Shown here: positions 1-39,053 of the stretch, piece by piece
Layout of the letters: every line of letters begins with the position of its first letter
How positions within the stretch are numbered: position 1 is the first letter of the stretch
NCBI GenBank assembly: GCA_965202625.1
Contig: CBDBBI010000010.1
Span: forward strand, 576,001-640,000
Direction of reading: 5' to 3'
From: a bacterium
Lineage (GTDB): Bacteria; UBA8248
Length of the DNA stretch: 64,000 bases
Made by a program: the position numbers and the translations under genes
Notes under the pieces: generated by a model
Told to the model about the DNA's origin: nothing
Databases searched by the model: none
Seen by the model: the letters and a program-made list of their open reading frames with translations, nothing else

Positions 1-1846
1 CGACGTAGCCCAGACGTATTATCGCGAGGTGGAAAGAAACGCCCTGTCCGACGCGAACCGACTTGCTCGTATGCTGGAGGGGACGCGCTCGGACATAATG
101 CGAAACCCTGCAGAAATCGCAAAAATATTAGAAACGGCAAGAAAGAACGCCGGAGCGGACATCATTCAGCTCTACGACAAAGGTCGGAAGGAAATCGTCT
201 CTGTAAAGCGGCCGAGTTTAGCACAATCTACCGGATTCTCGCCTTTGGTGGGATACGTGGATCAGGTGATTGACGGGGAGTCGCGCTCAAGCGTGGAGAA
301 TTGGGAGAAGGGAGACGCCGTCTATGGCGTGGAACCGCTGAGGGCGCAAAAAAAAGTAGTGGGATTTGTTGTCGTAACTAAATACATGTCCGGCCAGCTC
401 GTTGACCGGATCAGAGCCATATCAGATTCCTTTGTGGATTATAAAGAATTGGAACTGTCCAGAAACCCAATCAAGGCGAGCTATATCGTCACTTTTTTGG
501 TGATTACTTTGCTTATCCTGTTCGCTGCTATTTGGTTAGGCTTCTACCTCGCTCGCGGCATCACGGTTCCTATCGAAAAACTAGCAGAAGCCACTCGAGC
601 GGTCTCAGGTGGTAACCTCGAGCATCGCGTGGACGTGAAGGCAGATGGCGAGCTGGGCATCCTGATCGACGCATTCAACAGCATGACGGAAGAATTGTTG
701 GACAACAAAAAGAGAATTGAGCAATCTTCCGAAAACCTTCGCCGCTCCAATTTAGAAATCGATAGGAGACGCAGGTACATGGAGGCGATGCTCGAAAACA
801 TACGAACCGGCGTAATATCGACCGATCAGCGGGGGCGGGTCACCATTCTAAACAAAGCGGCCGGAGAGTTGCTGAACATCTCTCCACGGCATGCCGTCGG
901 GCAGATATTCAGCGAAGTTTTCGAAAGCGCACATCTCGAACCCATTCGCGAGTTGATGCGCTACATGAGAGGCCGGAAAGATGAAAATGTCTCGAAAAAA
1001 ATAGAGATGATGGCAAACAGCCGCGTGCTCACCCTGCAAACGAGCCTGACCCTCCTCAAAAACGCGAAAGGTGTCAGGCTCGGTGCGGTCATCGTGTTTG
1101 ACGACATGACAGCCCTGATACGCGCACAGAAGGTCGCTACGTGGCGGGAAGTCGCCCAAGGTATTGCGCATGAGATTAAAAATCCACTGACGCCGATTCA
1201 ACTCTCTACCCAGAGAATGAGAAAGAAATTTGAAAACGAAGCGTATGATTTCGCGGACATATTTGAAACGTGCACAAACACCATCATCCATCAAGTGACA
1301 AACCTGAAAGAAATGGTGAATAAATTCAGCCGGTTTGCGCGGATGCCCGATCCGATGCTCAGCCTTTGCGAGTTTGTTCCTCTTATCGAAGAGGTGGTAA
1401 ATTTATATCGCGGCGGGCAGGGAGACATGGCATTCTCCGCTCAAATCAGTGCCGAGAATGCATTCGTCATGGCGGACCCCGAGGAATTGCAACGCGTATT
1501 CATCAATTTGCTCAAAAATGCTTTCGAATCCCAAGAGGCCGAAGGCGGGGTAAACTTACAAGCTTGGGTAGAGCAGGACGGAAACATAATAGTTGTGGAA
1601 ATCGCCGACCAAGGCAAGGGGATATCAGAAGATATGAAAAGCCATGTGTTCGCGCCCTATTTTTCCACGAAGGCCAGAGGCTCCGGTTTGGGCCTGGCCA
1701 TTTGTTATCGCACCGTGGCTGATCACAATGGAACGATAAGCGTGCGCGACAACCATCCAGCAGGTTCCGTTTTTCGTGTAACGCTCCCTCTGGCGTCCGC
1801 CGTGAACGTCACGCCTAAAAAGCAAAGGGCGACCGCCATTGGATAG
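1..1846 (+). CDS. ntrY: NtrY-like HAMP/PAS sensor histidine kinase (5' end lies before the window)
   Basis: TM helix, HAMP and PAS regions; WREVAQGIAHEIKNPLTPIQLS H-box; NLLKNA, DQGKG, PYFSTK and GSGLGL boxes; frame open from position 2. Confidence 0.9.
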   Translation, partial: DVAQTYYREVERNALSDANRLARMLEGTRSDIMRNPAEIAKILETARKNAGADIIQLYDKGRKEIVSVKRPSLAQSTGFSPLVGYVDQVIDGESRSSVENWEKGDAVYGVEPLRAQKKVVGFVVVTKYMSGQLVDRIRAISDSFVDYKELELSRNPIKASYIVTFLVITLLILFAAIWLGFYLARGITVPIEKLAEATRAVSGGNLEHRVDVKADGELGILIDAFNSMTEELLDNKKRIEQSSENLRRSNLEIDRRRRYMEAMLENIRTGVISTDQRGRVTILNKAAGELLNISPRHAVGQIFSEVFESAHLEPIRELMRYMRGRKDENVSKKIEMMANSRVLTLQTSLTLLKNAKGVRLGAVIVFDDMTALIRAQKVATWREVAQGIAHEIKNPLTPIQLSTQRMRKKFENEAYDFADIFETCTNTIIHQVTNLKEMVNKFSRFARMPDPMLSLCEFVPLIEEVVNLYRGGQGDMAFSAQISAENAFVMADPEELQRVFINLLKNAFESQEAEGGVNLQAWVEQDGNIIVVEIADQGKGISEDMKSHVFAPYFSTKARGSGLGLAICYRTVADHNGTISVRDNHPAGSVFRVTLPLASAVNVTPKKQRATAIG

Positions 1847-3215
1847 GGGATATGTCCTCATCGTCGACGATGAGAGTGAAATACGCCTGAGCCTGGAGGC
1901 TGTCTTGCAGGATGAGGGCTATCGCGTAGAGAAGGCCGAGTCCGGCTCCGCCGCGCTCCAGTTGATTCAAGCAGAAGCCCCGGATGTGGTTTTGGTTGAC
2001 GTGTGGATGCCGGAGATGGACGGAATCAAAGCTCTGAAGGCGGTCAAGGGGCGCAACTCGGCTATTGAGGTCGTTGTCATGTCGGGGCACGGCAACATTG
2101 ATGCCGCCGTCGCCGCCACGAAACTAGGCGCTTTTCATTTTATTGAAAAACCCCTCTCCATCGATACGGTTTTGGGTGTTGTCGACTCCGCCGTTAAAGC
2201 GCGAAGAACAAAGGAGAGCCAGGCGGATGCTTCCCCTAACGCGAGACATAGCGACGACGCCGAAAGGACGCGAGGGGCCCGGACGGACATTTCAGATTCT
2301 GGCACAGGCGTGTCGGCTACTCACTTAAGACAAAAGATCAAAGCATATGATATAGAGGCACCGCCTGTGTCCACGAAGGTTGAGGGTGCAAATCAGCGGA
2401 GTATATCGAAGAGCGTCGTACTGCATGGCAGAGGTCTGCACTCAGGGCTGAAGACTGGATTGCTCATTGAACCCCTGCCGCCGGGGAGCGGAATACATTT
2501 TGGCAGCCTGACGAGCCCGGAGACCGTAAGAGCGAGCGTCGATTTCGTGGATGATACGAATCATGCGACAAACTTGCGCAACGGGTTGGTGGAGGCGCGC
2601 ACAATAGAGCATCTCATGAGTGCACTGCACGCATACGAGGTGAGCAACATCCTCATTAAAGTTGGCGAGGAAGTACCCGTCATGGATGGTTCGGCGGTGG
2701 AGTTTTGCCGCTTGCTCGAAGAGGCGGGTATAGAGGAGCAAGAGGAGAAACGCCAGGAATTGTGGGTGGACAAAGCCTATGAGGTGGGAGGGCCGGGGGG
2801 GGATGGGGGCTATATACGTATCGAGCCGGCGATCTCGTTTTCGATTTCCTGTCTCGTGGAATATCCCCAGCCCATTGGGAGGCAAGCCTATCTCTATGAA
2901 CACAAGAACGTGCTGGGTTTTCAGGAAAAAATTGCGCGAGCCCGCACGTTTGGCTTCGTATCTGAACTGGGTGCACTCGAAGAGATGGGCTTGGCCGAAG
3001 GTGGTCGTTGGGACAACGCGATTCTCGTGGACGAGGAGCGCATCGTGAATACGGAATTGCGATTCCCCGACGAGTTCGTCCGCCATAAAATTCTCGACGT
3101 TATGGGGGACCTTTATTTGGCCGGGTGGCCTATTCGAGGAAAAGTGACCGCCGAAAGAAGCGGGCACCGGCACAATGTCGCCTTGGTGAAAAAATTGGTG
3201 GAGGCCCAGGGCTGA
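1839..3215 (+). CDS. lpxC: Fusion of an NtrX-type receiver domain and UDP-3-O-acyl-GlcNAc deacetylase LpxC
   Basis: N-terminal VLIVDDE/VDVWMP/SGHG/FIEKP receiver; ~65-aa linker; LpxC motifs GRGLHSG, TIEHLMSAL, ARTFGF, RHKILD, SGH. Confidence 0.92.
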   Translation: MDRGYVLIVDDESEIRLSLEAVLQDEGYRVEKAESGSAALQLIQAEAPDVVLVDVWMPEMDGIKALKAVKGRNSAIEVVVMSGHGNIDAAVAATKLGAFHFIEKPLSIDTVLGVVDSAVKARRTKESQADASPNARHSDDAERTRGARTDISDSGTGVSATHLRQKIKAYDIEAPPVSTKVEGANQRSISKSVVLHGRGLHSGLKTGLLIEPLPPGSGIHFGSLTSPETVRASVDFVDDTNHATNLRNGLVEARTIEHLMSALHAYEVSNILIKVGEEVPVMDGSAVEFCRLLEEAGIEEQEEKRQELWVDKAYEVGGPGGDGGYIRIEPAISFSISCLVEYPQPIGRQAYLYEHKNVLGFQEKIARARTFGFVSELGALEEMGLAEGGRWDNAILVDEERIVNTELRFPDEFVRHKILDVMGDLYLAGWPIRGKVTAERSGHRHNVALVKKLVEAQG

Positions 3216-7096: not shown

Positions 7097-8188
7097 ATGA
7101 ACCGACGAAAAAGCACTCAGGTCGAGGTGCGCGGCGTTCGGATTGGCGGCGACGCTCCCATCGTCGTGCAGTCGATGTGCAACACCTACACGCACGACGT
7201 GGAGGAAACCGTCGGCCAAATCGAGCGACTCGAAGAGGCCGGGTGTGAGATTGCGCGTCTGGCCGTTCCTGACGAGAGAGCGGCGAATGCGCTGCCTCAG
7301 ATCAGAAAGCGCACTTCGATGCCCCTAGTGGCGGACGTCCATTTTGACTACCGCTACGCCTTGATGGCAGCGGACGCCGGAATTGATTGCCTGCGCATCA
7401 ACCCTGGCAACATCAATGGGGAACACAGGGTGAGCGAGGTGGTCGCCGCGGCCAAGTACCACGGATTGCCCATCCGCGTGGGCGTGAACGCAGGCTCCCT
7501 GGAAAAGCATTTGCTCGATCGCTTTGGCGGTGCCACGCCCGAGGCGATGGTGGAGAGCGGGTTGCGCCATGTCGCTATGCTAGAGAAGCGCGGGTTTTAT
7601 GATACGAAAATCTCTCTGAAGGCATCGGACGTCGGAAGGACGGTGCAAGCCTATCGCTTGATGGCGAAGCGCGTCGAATACCCACTCCACCTAGGTATCA
7701 CGGAGAGCGGAAGTCTGCATACAGGCAGCGTTAAAAGCGCGGTTGGTCTGGGTATCTTGCTCTCCGAAGGCATTGGCGACACCATCCGCGTCTCTTTGGC
7801 AGCGGACCCGGTGGAGGAGGTGCGCGTAGGCTACGAAATCCTCAAGAGCCTCAATTTGCGCAAAAAGGGCGTGAACGTCGTGGCGTGCCCATCTTGCGGT
7901 CGCGTCCAGATTGACGTAGATAAGCTCACGATGGAAGTAGAACGGGAGCTCGCCCATATCGACGTCCCTATCACGGTGGCCGTCATGGGTTGTGAGGTAA
8001 ACGGTCCGGGCGAGGCGAGGGAAGCCGACATCGGTGTGGCCGGCGGCCACAAGCGCGCCCTGATTTTCATGAAAGGGGAAAAGGTGGGACTAGTGGCGTA
8101 TCAGGACATCAAGAAAAACTTGGTGGAGCACGTAGAGGTGCTCGCCGCGCAATATGAACAAAAACGATACGAGGCGTTTCTCTCCTAA
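7097..8188 (+). CDS. ispG: 4-hydroxy-3-methylbut-2-en-1-yl diphosphate synthase (start codon uncertain)
   Basis: PIVVQSM, RINPGN, GVNAGSL, CPSCGR, MGCEVNGPGE. Confidence 0.96.
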   Translation: MNRRKSTQVEVRGVRIGGDAPIVVQSMCNTYTHDVEETVGQIERLEEAGCEIARLAVPDERAANALPQIRKRTSMPLVADVHFDYRYALMAADAGIDCLRINPGNINGEHRVSEVVAAAKYHGLPIRVGVNAGSLEKHLLDRFGGATPEAMVESGLRHVAMLEKRGFYDTKISLKASDVGRTVQAYRLMAKRVEYPLHLGITESGSLHTGSVKSAVGLGILLSEGIGDTIRVSLAADPVEEVRVGYEILKSLNLRKKGVNVVACPSCGRVQIDVDKLTMEVERELAHIDVPITVAVMGCEVNGPGEAREADIGVAGGHKRALIFMKGEKVGLVAYQDIKKNLVEHVEVLAAQYEQKRYEAFLS

Positions 8189-8202: not shown

Positions 8203-9915
8203 ATGCGATTTTCACGAGGGTTTTTCCCCACATTAAAAGAAGCACCCGCCGAGGCAGAAGTCGTCAGCCATAAGCTGATGGTGCGCTCGGGCATGATTCG
8301 CCGTTTGGCGGCGGGGGTGTATACGCTGTTGCCCCTCGGCGTGCGCGTGCAGCGCAAGGTGGAGCAAATTCTGCGTGAGGAGCTCGACCGCGCGGGCGCG
8401 CAGGAGGTTTTCCTGCCCGCGTTGAATCCCGCCGAGCTTTGGCGAAAAACGGGACGCTGGGAAGTGTATGGCAAAGAGTTGATTCGGCTGAAAGATCGCC
8501 ATGAACGTGATTTTTGCCTGGGTCCCACACATGAGGAGGTCATCACCGATCTCGTAGCGCGCGAGGTGAGGAGCTATCGGGACCTGCCGCTTAATCTCTA
8601 TCAGATTCAAACGAAATTCAGAGACGAGATCAGGCCGCGTTTTGGCGTGATGCGCGGGCGGGAATTTACGATGAAGGACGGCTACAGCTTTGATCGCGAC
8701 GAGGAAGGAGCTGAACGAAGCTACGATGAAATGATGCGAGCCTATGAGCGGATATTCCGGCGTTGCGGGCTGAGTTTCAGCAAGGTGGAGGCGGATTCCG
8801 GGACCATCGGAGGGAGTTTTTCGCATGAGTTCATGGTAATGGCCGACACGGGCGAGGAAGCGATTACCACGTGTGATGCGTGCGGCTACGCGGCGAACGT
8901 GGAAAAATCGCCGGTCCGTCTGACGCTTCCCGACAACGAGGGGGGGGAGATCGAGAAAGTACACACGCCGAGCACTCATACAATAGAAGAGGTGGTGAAA
9001 TTTTTCTCCTTGCCGCCGCATCGAATAGCCAAAACCCTTTTGTATTTGGCAGACGGCGCGCCCGTGGCTGCGCTGATTCCCGGGCACAGGGAGTTGAACG
9101 AGACCAAACTCAAGAATGCACTTGACGCAGTGGATATCGCCCTCGCTGACCCCGATACGGTCGAGAGGCTCACCCGCTCTGAGGTGGGTTTTGCCGGCCC
9201 CGTTGGTTTGTCGGACGTTCGACTCATCGCAGACCACGCCCTCGAGGGCAGTGGCGGGCTCATCGTTGGCGCGAACGAGACAGACTATCACTACGCGCGC
9301 GTGAGAGAGGGTCGTGATTTCAAAGCGAGCGAATTTGCGGATCTCACGGTGTCTAGCGCGGGAGACGCTTGTCCAGAATGCAACGAGGCACTCCGCATCA
9401 GGCGCGGCATTGAGGTAGGGCACGTCTTCAAACTGGGATGCAAGTATTCTGAATCTCTGGGTGCCGCCTATCAGGATGAAAATGGCGAGGCGCGCACTAT
9501 CTTCATGGGGTGCTACGGCATCGGCGTGGGCCGCACGGTGGCGGCAGCCATAGAACAGAACCATGACGCGGACGGGATCCTCTGGCCGACTCCCATCGCC
9601 CCATATCATGTGGCGATCATTCCGGTGGAAGGGACTGAGGAGACCCTGAAAGCTTGCCGACGTATGTACGACTCGCTCGCATCCACAGGATTGGAAGCTG
9701 TCCTTGATGATAGGAACGAGCGTGCAGGCGTGAAGTTCAAGGACGCCGACCTTATAGGTTTTCCCTATAAAATAGTTGTCGGCCCCAGATGCCTCAAAGA
9801 GGGAAAAATCGAGATAAAATCAAGGAGGACAGGAGAAATGCGGCTTGTAGCGATGGAGGAAGCGGTGTCTTTTCTGGAAGACCTGATCTCCGAGGAGATG
9901 AGCACCGCTGAGTGA
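8203..9915 (+). CDS. proS: Proline--tRNA ligase
   Basis: LGPTHEE, FRDEIRPRFGVMRGREF, editing insertion, MGCYGIG. Confidence 0.98.
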   Translation: MRFSRGFFPTLKEAPAEAEVVSHKLMVRSGMIRRLAAGVYTLLPLGVRVQRKVEQILREELDRAGAQEVFLPALNPAELWRKTGRWEVYGKELIRLKDRHERDFCLGPTHEEVITDLVAREVRSYRDLPLNLYQIQTKFRDEIRPRFGVMRGREFTMKDGYSFDRDEEGAERSYDEMMRAYERIFRRCGLSFSKVEADSGTIGGSFSHEFMVMADTGEEAITTCDACGYAANVEKSPVRLTLPDNEGGEIEKVHTPSTHTIEEVVKFFSLPPHRIAKTLLYLADGAPVAALIPGHRELNETKLKNALDAVDIALADPDTVERLTRSEVGFAGPVGLSDVRLIADHALEGSGGLIVGANETDYHYARVREGRDFKASEFADLTVSSAGDACPECNEALRIRRGIEVGHVFKLGCKYSESLGAAYQDENGEARTIFMGCYGIGVGRTVAAAIEQNHDADGILWPTPIAPYHVAIIPVEGTEETLKACRRMYDSLASTGLEAVLDDRNERAGVKFKDADLIGFPYKIVVGPRCLKEGKIEIKSRRTGEMRLVAMEEAVSFLEDLISEEMSTAE

Positions 9916-28227: not shown

Positions 28228-30315
28228 ATGGCGGCGCAAGAAACAGAACGGATCCGAAACGTTGCTTTTGTGGGAGAGGGCGGAAACGGAAAAACTTCTC
28301 TCGTGGAAGCCTGTCTCTTCACCGCCGGAAGCACGGACAGGCAAGGAAATGTGTACGCAGGAAGCACGATACTCGACTTCGAGCCTGAGGAAGTGAAGAG
28401 AACCTCCTCCATCTTCGGAGCGGTGGCCTACGCCGACTGGAACAAGCGTCGCTTCAATCTTCTCGATACGCCGGGATATTCAAACTTCATATCCGATGCC
28501 CTAGCCGCCATCCGCGCGTGCGACAACGCGGTCGTCGTCTTGAATTCTCACTCAGATCTGAAAGTGATTACCGAAAAAGTCTTGGGCTGGGCCGAGGATG
28601 AGGGTCTGTGCGCGTTCATATATCTCAACCAGATGGATCATGAACAAGCGGATTTGAGTCGCGTACTGGAACATGCGGGAAAGGTGATCAACAAGCGTCT
28701 CGTGGTTTTACAACTACCCATTAACCCCGGTGTCGGCTTCAACGGGATTCTCGATCTCATTATGGGCAAGACCTACACCTATGAAGTGGGGGGAAGCGGA
28801 AAGGGCGAGGAGGGCGATATTCCGGCGGAACTTGTCGATGCCTATGAAGAGCATCGCGCGCGGCTCATTGAGTTCGCCGCGGAATCGGACGAAGAGGTGC
28901 TCGAAAAATATCTCGAAGGAGAGGAACTCTCTCCGGATGAGATCGTTCAAGGACTGCGCCAGGGGATCCAGGAGGGTTCCTTCTTGCCGGTGTTATGCGG
29001 GTGCGGTCTCACGAACGTGGGCACGGACCTTCTACTTGATGCGCTCGATCAGTTTGGCGCCTCGCCCCTCGTTCATGAGTTCAAGGCAAGAAACGACGGC
29101 GGGGGGGAGGTGAACGTCAAGGCCGATTCAGGCGCGCCTTTCCGCGCCCTGGTGTTCAAAACGGTCATAGATGCTTTCGCCGGCAAGCTAAACTACTTTC
29201 GGGTAGTTTCGGGCGAAATTTCCTCCGACGCCAGCGTTCTCAACACCACACGATCGGAGAAAGAGAGAATCGGCGCCTTGTTCTTCGTCCAGGGGAAAGG
29301 GCAATCTCCCGTCTCCGATAAGCTCGTGCCAGGAGACATTGCTGCGGTCGCAAAACTGAAAATCACCAGAACCGGGGATACGCTTTGTGCCGAAGCGGGC
29401 GCCGTCGTGTTTGAACCCATCAACTTTCCTTCTCCTGTCATCTCCTACGCCGTAGCGCCCAAGAGCAAGGGAGATGAGGAGAAGCTCAGCACCGCCATCG
29501 CGCGCTCGCGCGATGAGGATCCCGTTCTCACCGTCAGCCGCGATCCGCAGACGAAGGAGATGCTTCTCTCGGGGCTGGGTGTTTTGCACATCAAAGTGAT
29601 GGTGGAGCGCATCAAGCGCAAATATGGCGTGGAAGTCGATATGAAAACCCCCCGCGTACCCTACAAGGAAACGATTAAAGGCAGAACTAAGGTGCAGGGC
29701 CGCTACAAGAAGCAAACGGGCGGGCGCGGACAATTCGGAGACACATGGCTTGAGATCGAGCCGCTACAGCGCGGAAGCGGCTTCGAGTTCGTAGATAAGA
29801 TTGTCGGCGGCGTGATCCCGAAAACGTTCATTCCGGCCGTGGAGAAGGGGATCGTAGAGGCAATGGATTCCGGTACCCTAGCTGGCTACCCAGTGACGGA
29901 TTTGAGGATCACGCTTTATGACGGCAGTTTTCACAACGTAGACAGCTCTGAGATGGCCTTCAAAATAGCCGGTTCTCTTGGCTTCAAAAAGGGCTTGCGG
30001 GAATGTAAGCCCACCCTCCTGGAACCCATCATGAACATGAACGTCGTCGTTCCGGAAGAGTATATGGGCGACATCATCGGGGACATGAACTCACGCAGGG
30101 GCAGGGTGCTCGGTATGGATCCGGGTGCTGGCGGCAAACAGGTCATCAAATCGCAGGTTCCCATGGCCGAGGTGTTGAACTACGCACCCGTGCTTCGCTC
30201 GCTTACCGCGGATCGGGGTGATTTCTCCATAGAGTTTTCACACTACGAGGAAGTACCAGGACAGATTTCTGAAAAAATTATATCCGAAGTGACACTTGCC
30301 GGTGAGAGCGAATGA
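28228..30315 (+). CDS. fusA: Elongation factor G paralogue (EF-G2-like)
   Basis: Full EF-G architecture (KKQTGGRGQFG, DGSFHNVDSSEMAF, LLEPIM) with divergent G motifs; not in an rpsL-rpsG-tuf operon. Confidence 0.9.
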   Translation: MAAQETERIRNVAFVGEGGNGKTSLVEACLFTAGSTDRQGNVYAGSTILDFEPEEVKRTSSIFGAVAYADWNKRRFNLLDTPGYSNFISDALAAIRACDNAVVVLNSHSDLKVITEKVLGWAEDEGLCAFIYLNQMDHEQADLSRVLEHAGKVINKRLVVLQLPINPGVGFNGILDLIMGKTYTYEVGGSGKGEEGDIPAELVDAYEEHRARLIEFAAESDEEVLEKYLEGEELSPDEIVQGLRQGIQEGSFLPVLCGCGLTNVGTDLLLDALDQFGASPLVHEFKARNDGGGEVNVKADSGAPFRALVFKTVIDAFAGKLNYFRVVSGEISSDASVLNTTRSEKERIGALFFVQGKGQSPVSDKLVPGDIAAVAKLKITRTGDTLCAEAGAVVFEPINFPSPVISYAVAPKSKGDEEKLSTAIARSRDEDPVLTVSRDPQTKEMLLSGLGVLHIKVMVERIKRKYGVEVDMKTPRVPYKETIKGRTKVQGRYKKQTGGRGQFGDTWLEIEPLQRGSGFEFVDKIVGGVIPKTFIPAVEKGIVEAMDSGTLAGYPVTDLRITLYDGSFHNVDSSEMAFKIAGSLGFKKGLRECKPTLLEPIMNMNVVVPEEYMGDIIGDMNSRRGRVLGMDPGAGGKQVIKSQVPMAEVLNYAPVLRSLTADRGDFSIEFSHYEEVPGQISEKIISEVTLAGESE

Positions 30316-30416
30316 CTTCGCCCTCACACATAGAGGGTTCGAATCATGGTCCAAAAAAGAGGGCGACTCGGGGGAGAATTACGGAGACTGCGAAGAAAAG
30401 GATGAGTGTCGTGGTG

Positions 30417-30792
30417 GTGGTCTTCTAAGACACCTTGATGGTCGCCCTGTTCTCGTTTGTCATGCTGGGTGGCGTAGGTGGGATATCAGTTTTGGTGGAT
30501 ACCCAAGATCGCGAAAAAAGAAAGAATCAAAGAAGCCCAGCAGAAGCAGAAAGAGCAAAGAAAGATGCGGCTGGCCCGAATTGAGCGCGAGACCGAGCTC
30601 ACGAAACAAGCACTCACGATCCTTGAACAGGTCAAGACGGACGGCGCGCGGGAGCGAGGACAGCCCGTTGTGTGGCCCGTTTCCCCCAAAGAGCAAAGGA
30701 GAGCAAATGCGGTGCCGAACGCAGTGGTAATGAAGAAATCCTCCGCACCACAAGGCCAACTTCTGAAAGACAGTCGGCATCAAACGCGATGA
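30417..30792 (+). pseudogene. Probable decayed membrane-anchored coiled-coil protein
   Basis: Hydrophobic LMVALFSFVMLGGV lies in a different frame just before GYQFWWIPKIAKKERIKEAQQKQKEQR; boundaries approximate. Confidence 0.35.
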
Positions 30793-31191
30793 TTACGGAA
30801 AAATCTATCGCCTCTCACCAGGGAGCAAAAGGTAAAACCAAGGGTTCGGGCAAACCCAAAGACACAAAAACCTAAAGCGAGAGCGCAGGAAAGCCTAGAC
30901 GTCCGTAGGCCGCGCCAAGGTATATCGGCACCAAAAGCAGTGGAGAGTATCCGTGGGAAGTTTTAAGTATCTGGAAGATACGGCCATCCTTTTGGATTGC
31001 ATCAAGGATTCTGGGTTTCGTGGCGAGCTTGCTTTCCGGCTTCAAGTCAAGACGACGCGGTTTTATGGAATACAGACGGGCAAATTTGAGAGATTTCGTG
31101 GGGCGATGGCGTTTAGAAGAAAAATCATCGGCGCTGGATTTTCTGATGCCACCGTAGTTCGTCAAAGGTTGAAAAAATAGAGGATCGATTC

Positions 31192-31940: not shown

Positions 31941-32609
31941 ATGGCTAGAACTTTTCGGAAAGAAATTCGGCAGCCAGACGCCTTGCAAATCTACGGACGG
32001 AAGACGCTTTCTTGGTTCGTCGCGCATCACCGGGTCTTGTACGCGGGTCTGGCGGGTGTTGTCGTGCTAGCAGCCGTTTTCGTAGGATACCACATGTGGG
32101 ATCAACGTGCTCGGGAAAAAGCGTCCTTGGCGTATGGCCTCGCCAAAATCGCATCTCCGGACGGCAAGGGCGAAGCGGTAGAGGCTGCGCTTCAAAAGGT
32201 GGCCGCCGATTATCCTCGCTCACGTCCAGGGCTTTTAGCGCGCTTGCGTCTGGCGGCCTTGTTGCGCGAGAGAAAGGAGTATCAGGGTGCGCAGGCACAG
32301 TATGAGCTCGTGGCCAAGAGCGGCACCTCAGAGAGCGATAAAGAACTGGCCAAGCGCGGAGCGGCGTCTGTCTTGATGCTACAGGGGGCCTGCGACGACG
32401 CTGTATCGATCTGGAAGTCGATTCTCGAAAAAGGGAGTCTCTTCGCGCCTGACGATCTGTATTTGTCCATCGCCGCTTGCCAGGAGAAGCTCGGCAAACT
32501 TGAGGAAGCCAGAAAAACTTATGAGGAATTAAGCAAAAAACATCCCGATAGTCCATTCCTGAATGAAGTATATTATCCGCCCAAGTCCCCTAAACATGAT
32601 TCATCGTAA
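31941..32609 (+). CDS. YfgM-like membrane-anchored tetratricopeptide repeat protein
   Basis: KEIRQPD N-terminus, single TM, TPR-like helices, HPDSPF. Confidence 0.85.
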   Translation: MARTFRKEIRQPDALQIYGRKTLSWFVAHHRVLYAGLAGVVVLAAVFVGYHMWDQRAREKASLAYGLAKIASPDGKGEAVEAALQKVAADYPRSRPGLLARLRLAALLRERKEYQGAQAQYELVAKSGTSESDKELAKRGAASVLMLQGACDDAVSIWKSILEKGSLFAPDDLYLSIAACQEKLGKLEEARKTYEELSKKHPDSPFLNEVYYPPKSPKHDSS

Positions 32610-32749
32610 GGCTGAGTTGACGAGTAGCCTGAGCCTTCTTCGACGAGCCATGCCGCGAAGAAGAAGAACCCGGCGCCTCTAAGTTGACAATAGACTTCAT
32701 AACGACGACGACCACGACCCATACGCATATCAACCTCCTGTCAGCCAGA

Positions 32750-32777
32750 GAAAAGCCGAAGGTATGTTATGATCAAG
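32750..32777 (+). other. Degenerate dif-like (att-like) site
   Basis: GAAAAGCCGAA-GGTATG-TTATGATCAAG; shares the AAGGTAT.TTATG core and orientation with 33159-33186. Confidence 0.55.
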
Positions 32778-32779
32778 AG

Positions 32780-32881
32780 TCAACTACCAAAATACCAAGC
32801 CAAGAAACCACCTAAAAAACCACACAAAATACCAAGAGAAACATAAAACAAACAAGAATCAAACCAATGACGACCACGCAT
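32780..32881 (-). CDS. 33-aa single-TM peptide MRGRHWFDSCLFYVSLGILCGFLGGFLAWYFGS
   Basis: Intact ATG..TGA; 25 of 33 codons end in T; deleted paralogous copy at about 33066-33128. Confidence 0.5.
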   Translation of the reverse strand: MRGRHWFDSCLFYVSLGILCGFLGGFLAWYFGS

Positions 32882-33158
32882 ACTAAACTTCTTTCAGACT
32901 TAGACGAGCCAGCATGACGAGAAGAAGTATGAGATGAAGCCAGACGCCCACGAGCGCCGGGACGCTCATGGTCAATCGAATACGCTCCTCACAGCCGAGT
33001 ACCTTTCAACTTGAAAACCTTAATCATTTTCTGGCCACGACGACAGACCCATACGCATATCGATGTCAATCAAAATACCACGTCAAAGTAGCGGCCAAGA
33101 AACCACCCAAAAAAGCAAGAGAAACATACTAAACTTCTTTCAGAGAAAGAAATTCAGT

Positions 33159-33186
33159 TTAGATGATAAGGTATATTATGTAAAAT
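33159..33186 (+). other. dif: Chromosomal dif site (XerC/XerD recombination site)
   Basis: TTAGATGATAA-GGTATA-TTATGTAAAAT vs E. coli GGTGCGCATAA-TGTATA-TTATGTTAAAT; intergenic between convergent genes; polarity switch here. Confidence 0.88.
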
Positions 33187-33209
33187 AGCAAAAATTTACG
33201 GGTTTGTTG

Positions 33210-34217
33210 TCACGCCTCGCGCCGTGAGAGGTCCGGGTCGGCGTGACCTTCGACATCGATTTCAAACCCCGCGTTTCGAATCATTTGATGTGCTGCTTCA
33301 GGCTTCTGGCCAGGCGTGGTGAGATAGCCGTCCACGAAAATGGAATTAGCGGGGAAGAGCGCTAGAGGCTGCAATTCCCTCAGCTGCGCCTCCCTTCCCC
33401 CAGCGACCCGAATTTCGGAGCGGGGATTGTAAAAGCGCATCAGGCACAAAAGTTTGAGGCAGGTCGTCGGTCCAAGTAGAGGCGTTCCTTCGAGCGGCGT
33501 GCCACCAATGGGATTGAGAAAATTGACGGGGATGGATTCTGGGCCGAGCGCGCGTAGCACCCGGCAAACGGAAATCACGTCATCGACCCTCTCCCCTTGC
33601 CCGAAGATCACGCCGGAGCATAGCTCGAGATTCGCCCGACGCGCCGTGTTCAGGGTGTCCAGCCGATCGTTGTAGGTGTGCGTGCCGCAAATTTCTGAAT
33701 AATAGCGAGCACTCGTGTTGAGGTTGTGGTTGAGGCGGCTAACGCCTGCCTCGCTGAGTCTCTCGGCTTGCTGAGGGGCGAGCAGGCCGAGGGAGCAACA
33801 TATGGAGAGACTATGGCGCGATTTGATCTTGGAGACGGCGCGGCAGATTTTTTCAATTTCCTCATCTGCTGGCCCCCGCGCGCTGATGACGATGCAGTAG
33901 CGTCTCGAGCCCGCCGCCTCGGCTCGCGCTGCTCCCGCAAGGAGTTGAGCCTCATTCACCAAAGCATATCTCTCGATTTGAGCACCGGAAACGGCCGACT
34001 GCGAGCAATACGCGCAATCTTCTGGGCAAATGCCGCTCTTGGCGTTGATGAGGTAGTGAATCTGCACCTTTTTCCCAAAATGGGCGCGACGAACGGAAAA
34101 AGCGGCATCGAGAAGTTTAAGAATGTCGTCGTCCGGCGCATGAATAACGGAAAGCGCATCCTTCCGGCTGAGGTCTTCATCCGTAAGGCTGCGCCGCGCC
34201 AGCGCATGGTAATTCAA
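33210..34217 (-). CDS. bioB: Biotin synthase
   Basis: CPEDCAYCSQS radical-SAM motif, NHNLNT, CSGVIFG, SIPVNFL, YLTT. Confidence 0.96.
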   Translation of the reverse strand: MNYHALARRSLTDEDLSRKDALSVIHAPDDDILKLLDAAFSVRRAHFGKKVQIHYLINAKSGICPEDCAYCSQSAVSGAQIERYALVNEAQLLAGAARAEAAGSRRYCIVISARGPADEEIEKICRAVSKIKSRHSLSICCSLGLLAPQQAERLSEAGVSRLNHNLNTSARYYSEICGTHTYNDRLDTLNTARRANLELCSGVIFGQGERVDDVISVCRVLRALGPESIPVNFLNPIGGTPLEGTPLLGPTTCLKLLCLMRFYNPRSEIRVAGGREAQLRELQPLALFPANSIFVDGYLTTPGQKPEAAHQMIRNAGFEIDVEGHADPDLSRREA

Positions 34218-34423
34218 GGCGTTTTCCCTCTCCTGGGCGTGGGCCTTGCACCATAGCGTGCACCCCGTTCTTTAGCAAATGAGGACATAGAACATCGTCG
34301 CAAAATCAAGGTTTCCCTTGTCTTGAACCCCTGCCTGCCCTTATTATGAATGCGAGTACGCAAAACTTAAAGTAACTTATAAACATATACCAACTCCAAC
34401 TTTTTAGATCAAAGAATTATGAT

Positions 34424-37318
34424 ATGAAACCTTATGGAAAACTTGAAGATGAATTGCGCAACGCCATTCAGGGTGATGTGCAATTTGACGTTTTCACCCG
34501 AAAAATATACAGCACAGACGCGAGCATGTACCAGATAGAACCCGTGGGCGTCGTCCTGCCCAAGACGAACGCTGACGTGCGAGAGGCGCTCAAAATCGCC
34601 AAGCACCACCGCGCTGCCATCTTGCCCCGGGGGGGCGGCACCAGCCTTGCTGGCCAGACGGTGGGCGAGGCATTGATTCTCGATTTCTCCAAATATATGA
34701 ACCGGGCACTTGAACTCAACGCCGAGGAGGGATGGGCGCGCGTCCAGCCGGGACTGGTGCAGGATCATTTCAACAATTACCTGAAGCCGCACGGCCTTGT
34801 TTTTGGCCCGAATACGTCCACAAGCAGCCGCGCCACCATCGGCGGCATGATGGGGAACAATTCCTCTGGTTCACGTTCCATCGTTTACGGGAAGACGGTG
34901 GACCACGTCATCGAGGTGGCCGGTTATTTCGCCGATGCTGAGCCTTTCTCCTTCGGTCCAAAGGATACGCGTTCTCTCGAATCTCTCATGAATGAGGATT
35001 CGCGTGTCGGCGCGCTTCATAAGGCGATTAAAGATATAGTGGACGCGCATCGAAGCGAGATTGAAGACCGATACCCTAGGATCATGCGCCGCGTGAGCGG
35101 ATACAACCTTGATGAACTCGCCAAGGAGACGCAGCTCTTTAACCTCGCTAAGCTCATGGTGGGCGCCGAGGGCACGCTGGCCGTGACGACGGAAGCCAAA
35201 GTGCGCGTGTGTCCTCTTCCGAAGGCGCTCGGCGTTCTAGTCGTTCACTTCCAAAACATTGAGGAAGCCCTCGCCGCGAGCACGACGATTCTCGCCCACG
35301 ACGTGGCGGCGATAGAGCTCATCGACAGGGTGATCATCGATCTCGCGAAAAAAAATCTCGAAGCCCAGCGCCTCATGCGCAGCTTTGTTGTGGGTGATCC
35401 GGATTGTTTTCTGACTATAGAGTTTTTCGCCGAGAACGACGTTGAAGCGAGGGAAAAGGTCAGACGCCTTCAAGATGAACTGGAGGTGAAAAACGTCGGC
35501 TACGCGCGTGTTCCTCTGGATAACCCCGCACATCAGCAAGATTGCCTGAACATGCGAAAGGCGGGACTAGGCTTTCTCCTCGGACGGCGTGGCGACTGGA
35601 AGCCCTACGCCTTCGTGGAGGATTGTGCGGTGGCACCCGAGCGTCTTTTGTCCTATTACCAGCGCTTCGAGGCTATCCTGAAAAAGTATGGCACGGCTAC
35701 CTCCTACTACGGGCATACGAGCGTGGGCTTGCTTCACCTACGCCCGCTCATCAACATTAAAAACGACGTGGAGGTCAAAAAAATGGCATCCATCGCCGAG
35801 GAGGTTTCCGAGCTTGTGCTCGAATACGACGGGGCCATGAGCGGGGAACACGGGGACGGGCTGGCAAGAAGCCAGTGGGTGCCCAAATTCTTTGGCGAGA
35901 AGCTCTATGACGCATTCTTAGAGGTGAAACGGCTCTTTGACCCGGAGAACCGTATGAACCCGGGAAAAATCGTGAACGCGCTCCCCTTCACCCAGAATCT
36001 GCGCTTTGACGGCTCTTACCAAACCCCTGAGATACCGACCATCATGGATTTTTCGGGCGACGGCGGATTTGCGCGTGCGGTGGAGCTTTGCAACGGGGTG
36101 GGGGCCTGCCGAAAGCGAGACGGCACGATGTGTCCCTCCTATCAGGCGACGCTAGAGGAGGAGCACTCAACGCGCGGGCGGGCGAACGCGCTTCGGGAAG
36201 TCATCGCGAACGGAATCCCCGGAGAGGATTTGGGCAGCGAGCGCCTTTATGAGGTGCTGGACCTTTGCCTGTCCTGCAAGGGCTGCAAGGCGGAGTGCCC
36301 ATCGAGCGTGGACATGGCGAAAATCAAGGCAGAAGTGCTTCAGGCCCACTACGACAAGAATGGGACCCCACTCCGTGCGCGGTTGATGGGACGCATCGCG
36401 CGCGTCAATCGCCTGAGTGCCCCCGTGGCGCCTATCGTGAACTGGACGCTCGCCAACCGCTTCATGCGTTCCCTGCTCGACAGGTTCTTAGGCATAGACA
36501 AGCGCAGGATGCTCCCTCCCCTGGCGACACCCACATTTGAGGAATGGTTTCGAAGCCGCCCCACCGCTCGAAACGCGACCCGCAGAGGAGAGGTTTTGTT
36601 CTTGAACGATACCTTTACGAACTTTCATTACCCGGAGATCGGCAAAGCCGCGGTCAAGGTGCTGGAGGCGGCCGGCTTCGAGGTGGCGCTCGCCGAGACG
36701 GGCTGCTGTGGACGGCCCATGATATCGCACGGCCTTCTGCGCGAGGGCCAAAAGCTGGCGCAGGAGAACGTCGCCCGTCTCTCTCCTGCCATAGAAGCGG
36801 GTTTGCCAATCGTCGGCGTCGAGCCAAGCTGCCTGTTGACTTTTCGGGATGAATATCCAGATCTCGTGGCGGGCGACATGGCCAGGCGCCTGGCGAAAAA
36901 TTCCTGGATGCTCGAGGATTTTTTGCAGAACCTCCATCAAAGGGGCGCGCTCGCCCTGAAATTCAAGGCCCAGCAGCGAGATGAACCGATGAAAGCCTTG
37001 TTTCATGGGCATTGCCATCAAAAGGCTTTGGTCGGCATGGGGGCCTCCCTTGAAGCTCTGGAGATGATCCCCGGTTTGGAGGTGAGCCAGATTCCTTCCG
37101 GCTGTTGCGGCATGGCGGGCTCGTTCGGCTACGAGAAAGAACACTTCGATATCTCCCTCGCCATCGGCGAGACGAAGCTCTTCCCCGCCCTGAGAGAAAG
37201 CGAGGCGAACGCCACGGCGATTGCGAACGGCGTCTCCTGCCGACAGCAGATCGCCGCCGGCACGGGAAAAAAGGCGCTTCACCTCGCCGAAGTGCTGGCG
37301 AACGCACTGGATGAGTGA
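34424..37318 (+). CDS. FAD-linked oxidase fused to 4Fe-4S dicluster and CCG domains (YdiJ/GlcD-F-like)
   Basis: PRGGGTSLAGQ, SGEHGDG, NPGK, CNGVGAC, CLSCKGCKAECP, CCGRP, CCGMAGSFG. Confidence 0.92.
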   Translation: MKPYGKLEDELRNAIQGDVQFDVFTRKIYSTDASMYQIEPVGVVLPKTNADVREALKIAKHHRAAILPRGGGTSLAGQTVGEALILDFSKYMNRALELNAEEGWARVQPGLVQDHFNNYLKPHGLVFGPNTSTSSRATIGGMMGNNSSGSRSIVYGKTVDHVIEVAGYFADAEPFSFGPKDTRSLESLMNEDSRVGALHKAIKDIVDAHRSEIEDRYPRIMRRVSGYNLDELAKETQLFNLAKLMVGAEGTLAVTTEAKVRVCPLPKALGVLVVHFQNIEEALAASTTILAHDVAAIELIDRVIIDLAKKNLEAQRLMRSFVVGDPDCFLTIEFFAENDVEAREKVRRLQDELEVKNVGYARVPLDNPAHQQDCLNMRKAGLGFLLGRRGDWKPYAFVEDCAVAPERLLSYYQRFEAILKKYGTATSYYGHTSVGLLHLRPLINIKNDVEVKKMASIAEEVSELVLEYDGAMSGEHGDGLARSQWVPKFFGEKLYDAFLEVKRLFDPENRMNPGKIVNALPFTQNLRFDGSYQTPEIPTIMDFSGDGGFARAVELCNGVGACRKRDGTMCPSYQATLEEEHSTRGRANALREVIANGIPGEDLGSERLYEVLDLCLSCKGCKAECPSSVDMAKIKAEVLQAHYDKNGTPLRARLMGRIARVNRLSAPVAPIVNWTLANRFMRSLLDRFLGIDKRRMLPPLATPTFEEWFRSRPTARNATRRGEVLFLNDTFTNFHYPEIGKAAVKVLEAAGFEVALAETGCCGRPMISHGLLREGQKLAQENVARLSPAIEAGLPIVGVEPSCLLTFRDEYPDLVAGDMARRLAKNSWMLEDFLQNLHQRGALALKFKAQQRDEPMKALFHGHCHQKALVGMGASLEALEMIPGLEVSQIPSGCCGMAGSFGYEKEHFDISLAIGETKLFPALRESEANATAIANGVSCRQQIAAGTGKKALHLAEVLANALDE

Positions 37319-37365: not shown

Positions 37366-39053
37366 ATGTCGCAAACAATCGAGGCTGAGCAACGAAGACT
37401 GGGGCAGATATTCAGCGATGCTTATGATTTTATTATACCTCCATATCAACGCCCTTACGCATGGGCAACGGAACAAACATCCGCTCTGCTTGATGACCTC
37501 CAGACAGCTTCCGAAGCTAAAGAGATAGAGGATATGCCACCCTATTTCCTGGGAAGTATTGTTATTATCAAGAAAAAAGAGAAAGCATTATCCGAAGTCA
37601 TTGATGGCCAACAACGTCTCACGACTCTCACAATCCTACTTTGTGTCCTGCGCGAGCTCATTGAAGACGATGGAGTGCGAGATGCTCTTGATGAGCGCGT
37701 GGTTGCAAAAGGAGACGCTCTTAGGAACGTTGAGGATAGGATGAGATTGCAGTTGCGAGACCGGGACGAGATGTTCTTCAGGGAAAAGATACAGTCCAAG
37801 GGGCATCTGAAAAATTCTTGTTTGAAAGCTCACAGAAGAAGTTGTCGGATAGCCAGAAAGGAATATGCGAAAACGCCCGCTATTTGTGGGATAAACTTAA
37901 GAAAATTTCGAATTCTGACCAATCAAGCCTTGAGAAGTTGGCAAGGTTTCTTGACCAGCGTTGCTATCTGGTTGTCGTTTCCTCCTCAGACATAGATTCC
38001 GCATATCGCATATTTTCCGTGATGAACGATCGGGGCCTCAATCTTTCTCCTACCGACATCCTCAAGGCCGAAATTATTGGCCTGTTACCTGAGAATAGGC
38101 GTTCCACCTACACAAAAAAATGGGATGACCTCGAGGAAGGATTGGGACGCGAGAATTTCAGAAATCTCTTTGCGCATATCCGGATGATCTATATGCAGAG
38201 CAAACAGCAACAAACCTTGGCTCAAGAATTTCGAGAAAGCATCCTAACTCAGACGGAAACGAAAGGCGGAAAATTTATTGACGATGTGCTTATACCGTCC
38301 TCAGAGTCATACCTCATAGTTTTAAACGGGATTGCTCAAGACACCAAAAATGCCGAGGAGGTCAACAAGTATCTTAGGTATCTTCGTCGTCTCGACAATT
38401 CCGATTGGGTCCCGCCCGCAATCGCTTTCTTCAAGCGTTATGAGAATAATTTTGATGCGATTCTTAAGTTTGCACGCGATCTTGAACGTTTGGCTTATGC
38501 GTTATTTATCCGAAGAGCTCGCATCAACGAACGTATCAGCCGCTATGTGGATGTCCTACGCTCGATTGAGAAGGGATACGATCTTTATGAAGAAGCGTCA
38601 CTCCAATTGCAAGATCAGGAAAAGTCTGAGGTTCTTGAAGCACTCGGCGGCCCCATCTATAAGACCCGTTTTTGCAAGCCGTTACTCCTCCGCCTGGATA
38701 GTTTATTGGCCGATGCAGGAGCCAGATATGATCACAAGATAATCAGCGTCGAACATGTCCTTCCGCAAGACCCAAGCCCAGGGTCGAAATGGTTGGAATT
38801 GTTCCCCTGTGAGGAGGAGAGGAAAAACTGGACACACAAGATAGCCAATCTTCTTCTCCTATCGCGGTCAACAAACACGAAAGCGCAAAACTACGAATTC
38901 GAGCGTAAAAAACGAGAGTATTTTGAAAAAAGGGTCGTCACTACCTTTGCTCTCACATCCCAGGTGTTAAACGAATCCGAGTGGACAGTGGATGTCCTGG
39001 AAAAACGCCAACGAGAACTCTTGGAAAAATTGAAAAAAGAATGGCGTCTCTAG
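37366..39053 (+). pseudogene. DUF262/DUF1524 (GmrSD/SspE-like) nuclease, frameshifted near 37810
   Basis: PYQRPYAW, IDGQQRLTT in the first frame; MNDRG..L..DILK, EHVLPQ, ANLLLL..N in the second; the shift maps to an A5 run at 37810-37814; lower GC. Confidence 0.85.

Follow-up and report, generated by a model that had tools for sequence, protein, structure and literature searches.

Within a 64,000-nt window of contig CBDBBI010000010.1 (positions 576,001 to 640,000; all positions below are counted from the first letter of this window), a TPR_21-family gene and bioB converge on a canonical dif site. Between the TPR gene and dif lies a tract of about 0.6 kb that contains two related units of three micro-ORFs (open reading frames) each, and the foreign tract directly abuts the XerC arm of dif. 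Read along the minus strand, the bioB stop (33210) is followed by 23 nt, dif, a hairpin (33158-33128), unit 1, unit 2 and the end of the convergent TPR_21-family gene. We interpret the segment from about 32567 to 33158 as a decayed array that results from Xer-dependent integration of a small foreign element at dif, of the type known from integrative mobile elements exploiting Xer (IMEX), and give this reading a probability of roughly 0.55. The features of the locus are as follows.

31941-32609, plus strand: TPR_21-family gene (Pfam TPR_21, 8.9e-15)
32556-32583, plus strand: left vestigial dif-like site, here called site3, which matches dif at 14/28 positions and holds the 9-mer GTATATTAT (repeat family D6)
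32573-32728, minus strand: B'-C' of unit 2, a 51-aa ORF starting MRMGRGRRR, with GGAGG 5 nt upstream of its ATG
32750-32777, plus strand: internal dif-like site, here called att2, GAAAAGCCGAA-GGTATG-TTATGATCAAG
32780-32881, minus strand: A' of unit 2, an intact hydrophobic 33-aa ORF
32879-32898, minus strand: second copy of a 20-nt exact block, with an AAGAAG Shine-Dalgarno-like stretch and the ATG of A', at the boundary of unit 1 and unit 2
32883-32975, minus strand: C of unit 1, a hydrophobic 30-aa ORF with its stop 1 nt ahead of the ATG of A'
33020-33061, minus strand: B of unit 1, in which a 16-nt exact block with ATG is followed, after a deletion of 2 nt in comparison with B', by MRMGLSSWPEND-stop
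33066-33144, minus strand: A of unit 1, consisting of the 20-nt block and then a 37-nt TATG-bounded deletion, with the ATG out of frame
33128-33158, minus strand: 14-bp hairpin directly next to the XerC arm of dif, with a T-rich run after it
33159-33186, plus strand: canonical dif, TTAGATGATAA-GGTATA-TTATGTAAAAT
33210-34217, minus strand: bioB (NCBIfam bioB, 1e-112, also found with Pfam), its stop 23 nt from dif

In the window, the canonical dif alone reaches 17/17 against the arm consensus common to three relatives with the same neighbourhood. It falls at about 32-38 kb, where the cumulative GC skew flattens and then turns; gene orientation and GC skew converge near 33-40 kb. The gene content of the window is that of an ordinary chromosome (lptABC, rpoN, ftsH, proS, EF-G, bioB and others), and some relatives of the TPR protein at 73-74% identity carry the NCBI name Nitrospinae bacterium. 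An assembly artefact or a chimeric join at the terminus of this metagenome-assembled chromosome is extremely improbable, given flanking genes that are intact and syntenic with relatives, a canonical dif at the skew turn and a tract with an internal logic of ORFs, Shine-Dalgarno sequences and in-frame relics. What speaks for such an artefact is that the source is an uncultured organism, apparently represented by one contig of 2.9 Mb, and that a nearby gene is split over three frames.

Two related units of foreign style

An earlier note on this DNA had listed five exact blocks, 16 nt at 32716/33046, 20 nt at 32879/33125, 14 nt at 32799/33094, 13 nt at 32833/33116 and 9 nt at 32642/32903, all of which were recovered at these coordinates and offsets as families D1-D5 among the seven repeat families detected. 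The perfect 20-nt and 16-nt blocks are the two translation-start regions. The note's claim of two related tandem units also holds: the two minus-strand units reach a score of 149.8 in gapped global alignment, compared with a mean of 81.1 (standard deviation 8.5) and a maximum of 107.3 in 200 shuffles. Unit 1 runs from 33144 down to 32899 and unit 2 from 32898 down to about 32600. Each carries the micro-ORFs A, B and C in one common order, and the proposed minus-strand series dif - A (deleted) - B - C - A' - dif-like site - B' - C' is correct. With permissive gaps, the alignment comprises 153 matches, 18 mismatches and 203 gap columns, so that the units are identical at 89% of alignable columns while half of all columns are gaps. 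Because mismatches are few and gap columns many, the units appear to have diverged mainly by deletions. Tandem Repeats Finder reported only a 12-nt micro-repeat in the tract.

The tract had been described as having no ORF. Small minus-strand ORFs of 33, 51 and 30 aa are nevertheless present, two of the three preceded by a Shine-Dalgarno-like sequence, and the longest ORF in the tract is at most 54 aa. The 51-aa ORF of B'-C' is Arg-rich, and its 3' part overlaps the end of the TPR gene on the opposite strand. C of unit 1 has an alternative frame that is Ser/Arg-rich, and either frame could be the coding one. In the dif-proximal unit 1 both A and B are broken. Derivation of A from A' by deletion between TATG microhomologies, as suggested earlier, agrees with the loss of 37 nt and with TATG at both sides; the residual frame of A reads YVSLAFLGGFLAATLTWYFD-stop, like the end of A'. 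B stops after 12 codons and has neither a Shine-Dalgarno sequence nor an att site upstream. The A-B spacer of unit 1 is without the 28 nt and 5 nt that hold the dif-like site and the Shine-Dalgarno sequence in unit 2.

On its minus strand the tract contains 37.5% T, 16.9% A and 45.6% GC, compared with 54.5% GC in the flanks. The strand skew that had been noticed in it is pronounced, with an AT skew of 0.36 that is the top value of all 580-nt windows in the 64 kb, and the G/C skew of the tract is opposite to that of its replichore. The T-rich coding style, unlike that of the host, is seen at third codon positions: the T fraction (T3) amounts to 0.74 for the 33-aa ORF and to 0.69 for codons 1-16 of B', versus 0.17-0.22 in four host genes, and the GC fraction (GC3) is about 0.2 in tract ORFs (0.21 in the 33-aa ORF) versus 0.58-0.71 in four host genes. 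The tract is DNA foreign in composition and codon style and, since its codon style is foreign, it is not duplicated host DNA.

Hydrophobic ORFs of 30-33 aa with Shine-Dalgarno-like sequences, the strong GGAGG of B' and tandem units at about 250-330 nt also recall a host locus for small membrane proteins, or a type I toxin-antitoxin-like locus, placed beside dif by chance. Type I toxin loci (Ldr, Ibs/Sib) often occur in tandem repeats, and the likeness lies in units of a few hundred nt, each with a small hydrophobic ORF. Such an origin is nonetheless improbable. The tract differs from Ldr and Ibs/Sib in having no Pfam family match, toxin families included, in its foreign codon usage, in its absence from all three syntenic relatives and in carrying dif-like cores, which a toxin-like locus would leave unexplained; moreover, one of its copies is broken.

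Searches with the tract returned no homologue. Using blastn with 32560-33200 we obtained a single record from the phage collection, Microviridae MW202445, in which 25 nt (E = 0.7) match the start of a 36-aa Arg-rich ORF; this match is CGT-rich, of low complexity and not significant. The plasmid collection gave 3 records with matches of 23-35 nt (E = 0.2-0.6). In tblastn against 50,697 phage records the 51-aa ORF gave 9 records, all at E >= 3, and none was returned for the 33-aa ORF or for two 58-aa stop-to-stop frames. Pfam had none for the 3 minus-strand small ORFs at E <= 0.1 and two chance-level hits (E 0.05-0.09) for the 2 plus-strand small ORFs, and PHROGs had no match for 6 small ORFs. 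A known structured non-coding RNA, which the note had considered as another identity of the tract, is not supported by Rfam, which matched nothing in 32450-33300 at E <= 1 and, at gathering thresholds, reported only 4 tRNAs in the window, all elsewhere. An index of 5.8 billion protein clusters yielded no candidate for the 51-aa ORF or the 54-aa plus-strand ORF. For the 33-aa ORF, phmmer against 1.84 billion representative proteins, by which only close relatives are reachable, gave 0 hits, and the best score in the protein Atlas, 0.79, is not a lead. Neither integrase, transposase nor phage families were detected among the 58 window ORFs (NCBIfam), and capsid, Rep, Zot/pI-like and coat hallmarks of Microviridae and Inoviridae were not found with PHROGs, Pfam, tblastn or blastn. 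The window also contains neither xerC nor xerD.

The link to single-stranded DNA (ssDNA) phages that had been drawn from the sequence is therefore supported in its compositional part, while homology to Inoviridae or Microviridae comes down to the one insignificant 25-nt match. Our best guess for the donor, from style only, is a small ssDNA phage or satellite. As no part of the tract has a homologue in the collections searched, a phage origin is unproven; as short peptides reach close relatives only, the missing homologues are weak evidence.

Dif-like sites and altered gene ends

The internal site att2 occupies the 51-nt spacer between ORF A' and ORF B'. It agrees with dif at 16/28 positions (4/11 in the XerC-arm equivalent, 5/6 in the centre and 7/11 in the XerD-arm equivalent), and its centre GGTATG is close to the centre GGTATA of this genome's dif. 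The dif-like site already recognized in the earlier note stands out here as well, since 32759-32771 matches 12/13 of the dif core and is the sole site with at most one mismatch in the 64 kb. In site3, GTATATTAT reproduces dif from position 2 to position 6 of the central region and on through the first four XerD-arm bases; the XerC-arm equivalent matches at 5/11. A search with the 15-mer dif core at <= 3 mismatches found three sites besides dif in the 64 kb, at 32563-32577, 32757-32771 and 48552 (opposite strand). Both cores in the tract have the orientation of dif, and the relatives are without such extra sites. In 20,000 shuffles of the 621-nt region, one or more hits occurred in 115 and two or more in 0. 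Folding of the A'-att2 region as ssDNA is not better than in shuffles (z = -0.39), so a CTX-like folded attP is not indicated there.

Two further candidates were rejected as chance. One is a dif-like match at 34415-34442 (plus strand) with 14/17 arm positions, which overlaps the start of a ydiJ-like gene in a region that aligns with the relatives with no indel; the first six codons of this gene differ from the relatives'. The other is a likeness of 8 nt that block C, at its end, shows to the outer XerC arm, chance by our own estimate.

For comparison with relatives we scanned a genome collection for BioB, which confirmed 577 of 585 candidate stretches, and kept the best 80 of the 577. Among these 80, the closest loci by BioB identity are L002 (79%) and L003 and L004 (both 75%), followed by the next at 54%. 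L002, L003 and L004 keep the TPR-gene/dif/bioB neighbourhood with one canonical dif each (8505-8527, 8547-8569 and 7347-7369, respectively; the centre in the window is at 33170-33175). Their dif lies 37-50 nt past the orthologous TPR stop, and the window is about 550 nt longer at this place. The tract of about 600 nt is absent from all three syntenic relatives, all of them distant (75-79% BioB identity). This comparison of dif-flanking DNA, which the note had proposed, agrees with its view of the tract as DNA inserted beside dif, the TPR-dif-bioB order being kept in relatives without the tract. When the tract was compared by blastn and tblastx with 81 loci and the remainder of the window, the only matches were dif sites and one 25-nt phage match, and there was no second copy.

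The bioB side of dif is variable, with an RtcB-like gene plus spacer in L002 and L003, 347 nt in L004 and 23 nt in the window. The RtcB-like gene, between dif and bioB, encodes about 410 aa (L002 7222-8460, L003 7263-8489) and is not there in L004; its protein has no tblastn match anywhere in the 64-kb window.

On the other side, DNA homology of the TPR gene to L002-L004 stops after the PFL(NE) codons, just before the core of site3. Replacement of the TPR tail starts exactly at this core, and from about 32567 onward the foreign tract provides the last ~13-14 codons. The 12 aligned TPR relatives all end ...SPFLxxxIR(A/S)K..., whereas the window protein ends ...SPFLNEVYYPPKSPKHDSS, and 0 of 72 relatives in a large protein collection align beyond 94% of its length. 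Judging from these alignments, the end of the TPR gene has been rewritten by an insertion or deletion event. XerC cleaves at the border between arm and central region (PMC4246890), and the left junction of the tract lies 0-3 nt from the position where XerC would be expected to cut. At this junction the last ~13 TPR codons are gone, as are the XerC arm and the ancestral spacer.

The XerD arm of dif is identical in the window and the three relatives, and the inner XerC arm also matches. The central region reads GGTATA in the window, GATATG in L002 and L004 and TATATG in L003. The hairpin that adjoins dif (RNA fold -15.8 kcal/mol, z = -2.45) is built from the repeat: the 20-nt block contributes its 3' arm, and its 5' arm is an imperfect inverted copy of that block. 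It may act as a terminator for bioB, and the BioB C-terminus is 2-3 residues longer here than in the relatives (ORF comparison). The tract supplies the last ~13 codons of the TPR gene and the hairpin downstream of bioB. The present dif probably owes its XerC arm and its centre to the tract as well.

Elsewhere in the window three other features were observed. Between EF-G and a MerR-family gene, at 30423-31177, the orthologue of a 416-429-aa protein of L002 and L003 lies in pieces in three frames; this is either a decayed gene or the product of assembly frameshift errors, and the corresponding stretch of L004 measures only about 145 nt. A GmrSD-family restriction endonuclease gene (37818-39053, plus strand; Pfam GmrSD_C, 3.5e-24) lies near the terminus in a stretch of lower GC. 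Finally, a 458-aa ORF at 1839-3215 (plus strand) combines a response-regulator receiver domain (residues 6-131) with LpxC (185-456), which is an unusual fusion or an over-extended ORF call.

Proposed integration at dif and its alternatives

In the reading that we prefer, a circular element whose A-B spacer held a dif-like attP would have recombined with dif through the host XerC and XerD. Integration would have regenerated a working dif on the bioB side by joining the XerC arm and part of the centre of the element to the XerD arm of the host, which may be why the present dif has a central sequence of its own. Degenerate hybrid sites would have been left on the TPR side. More than one copy would have been stacked, through integration that was repeated or involved a multimer, or else through a local duplication at a later time. 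Subsequent deletions would have taken away the greater part of the element together with one att site; the ancestral TPR tail, spacer and XerC arm would have been lost in this way too. From the repeated C-to-A adjacency it follows that the element lacked a large body from the outset or that local duplication affected a remnant already eroded. As a mobile element, the remains are probably inert today.

Several observations weigh against this reading. The match of site3 to dif is short, and the XerC-arm equivalent of att2 is poor (4/11), where a good arm would be expected after simple sequential integration. There is no att site at C|A', att sites and unit boundaries fall at different places, and next to dif the array opens with A, not with B. 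An AT skew of 0.33-0.35, nearly as high as in the tract, occurs at 30301-30501, and no part of the tract has a homologue in the phage, plasmid, PHROGs, Pfam, Rfam or protein collections. The polarity of the gain of the tract rests on three distant relatives only, and both flanks of dif differ in all four genomes. By this comparison the dif interval is a rearrangement hot spot, which weakens a simple polarity argument.

The same hot spot might have produced the locus without Xer, if the segment from the TPR tail to the bioB stop had been rebuilt from foreign or rearranged DNA by illegitimate or homologous recombination and the dif-like cores were leftovers of local duplications of dif-proximal sequence. 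We consider this unlikely, because two same-orientation dif cores within 621 nt never arose in 20,000 shuffles, att2 is placed neatly in the intergenic spacer of a foreign cassette and the codon style argues against duplicated host DNA. Its support comes from the differences on both sides of dif among the four genomes, from the altered ends of both neighbouring genes, from another decayed gene 1.5 kb away and from the extra cores themselves, which agree with dif at 16/28 and 14/28 positions, have poor XerC-arm equivalents and do not bound each unit.

The earlier note had favoured a micro-element of ~330 nt. As an active, non-autonomous mini-IMEX this would be a circle of 0.3-0.4 kb (att-B-C-A) with a one-armed dif-like attP between its micro-ORFs and no replication or capsid genes, which would multimerise at dif, excise and reintegrate through XerCD and travel with a helper ssDNA phage. 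The A'-att2-B' arrangement does look like an intact circular junction, but the dif-like site stands within one unit and is missing from the other, with no att at C|A' or between A and B of unit 1. Likewise, the same C-to-A adjacency within the array, with no sign of a lost large body there, and exact 16- and 20-nt blocks that span both translation starts would suit such an element, yet both genes of the dif-proximal unit are broken and the TPR-side junction is eroded into the TPR gene. No other copy was found in the window, the 81 loci or the phage and plasmid collections, nor was there a recognisable replication or packaging function or a relative in the collections searched. We regard an active mini-IMEX as very doubtful, and the alternative offered in the same note, the eroded remains of integrations, fits better. 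Confidence in Xer-dependent integration is moderate because the misfits in arm, order and boundary keep both the non-Xer and the mini-element explanations alive.

Known Xer-exploiting elements and biological meaning

IMEX are described as forming tandem arrays with a canonical dif regenerated at one junction and as having one-armed 17-bp attP sites (PMC12715192). The tract resembles them as foreign DNA placed right next to the chromosomal dif in the terminus, with stacked related units and no integrase, and in that a canonical dif at one end is accompanied by degenerate, direct-orientation dif-like sites on the other side. Unlike the tract, which consists of about 0.6 kb of orphan micro-ORFs, IMEX comprise kilobases with replication, coat or regulator genes. 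Furthermore, the units of the tract are not each bounded by att sites, and the use of Xer is deduced here from sequence.

Gokushovirus prophages of enterobacteria are reported to lie between a conserved bacterial dif and a more variable phage dif, their integration depending on XerC, XerD and both arms (PMC7062461). Proviruses of the Bacteroidetes microvirus (BMV) group are described with an additional dif-like site near one end (PMC3091885). As in the Microviridae prophages of these two accounts (PMC7062461, PMC3091885), a bacterial dif is combined here with a variable dif-like motif in a short non-coding spacer and with compact coding. The small Arg-rich ORF of the tract also recalls small basic proteins of microviruses, for example the 36-aa Arg-rich ORF in MW202445. 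In contrast to microviruses, the tract is without a capsid or Rep gene, has no homology to them and reaches about one tenth of their genome size.

The pdif modules of Acinetobacter are flanked by sites in inverted orientation. Like the tract, they are described as small DNA bounded by Xer sites without a recombinase gene (PMC7399989), but they are plasmid-borne and carry resistance or toxin-antitoxin genes, whereas the tract is chromosomal and its sites are direct.

Taken together, the feature points to an IMEX-type scar and hence to a known class of Xer-exploiting elements. The dif site is a universal landing pad that requires no integrase, and most of its documented users are kilobase-sized phages in few well-studied groups. 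Here, the candidate scar is of sub-kilobase size in an uncultured Nitrospinota-like lineage and comes with an extra dif-like core, a dif with a changed centre and a rewritten host gene end. In narrow word searches of the literature we found neither Xer-flanked vestiges of sub-kilobase size nor mini-IMEX described, and no account of IMEX from a Nitrospinota-like lineage. A mini-IMEX, if true, would be the Xer counterpart of a miniature inverted-repeat transposable element (MITE) or of a defective-interfering miniphage. No long-standing question is opened, since the remains look inert and the donor is only guessed. If Xer-dependent integration is the true origin of the tract, Xer-exploiting elements would extend to a new lineage, and such events would remodel gene ends and dif itself. 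It would also provide a search image, short T-rich cassettes between direct dif-like cores, with which chromosome termini may be read as records of infection by ssDNA elements.

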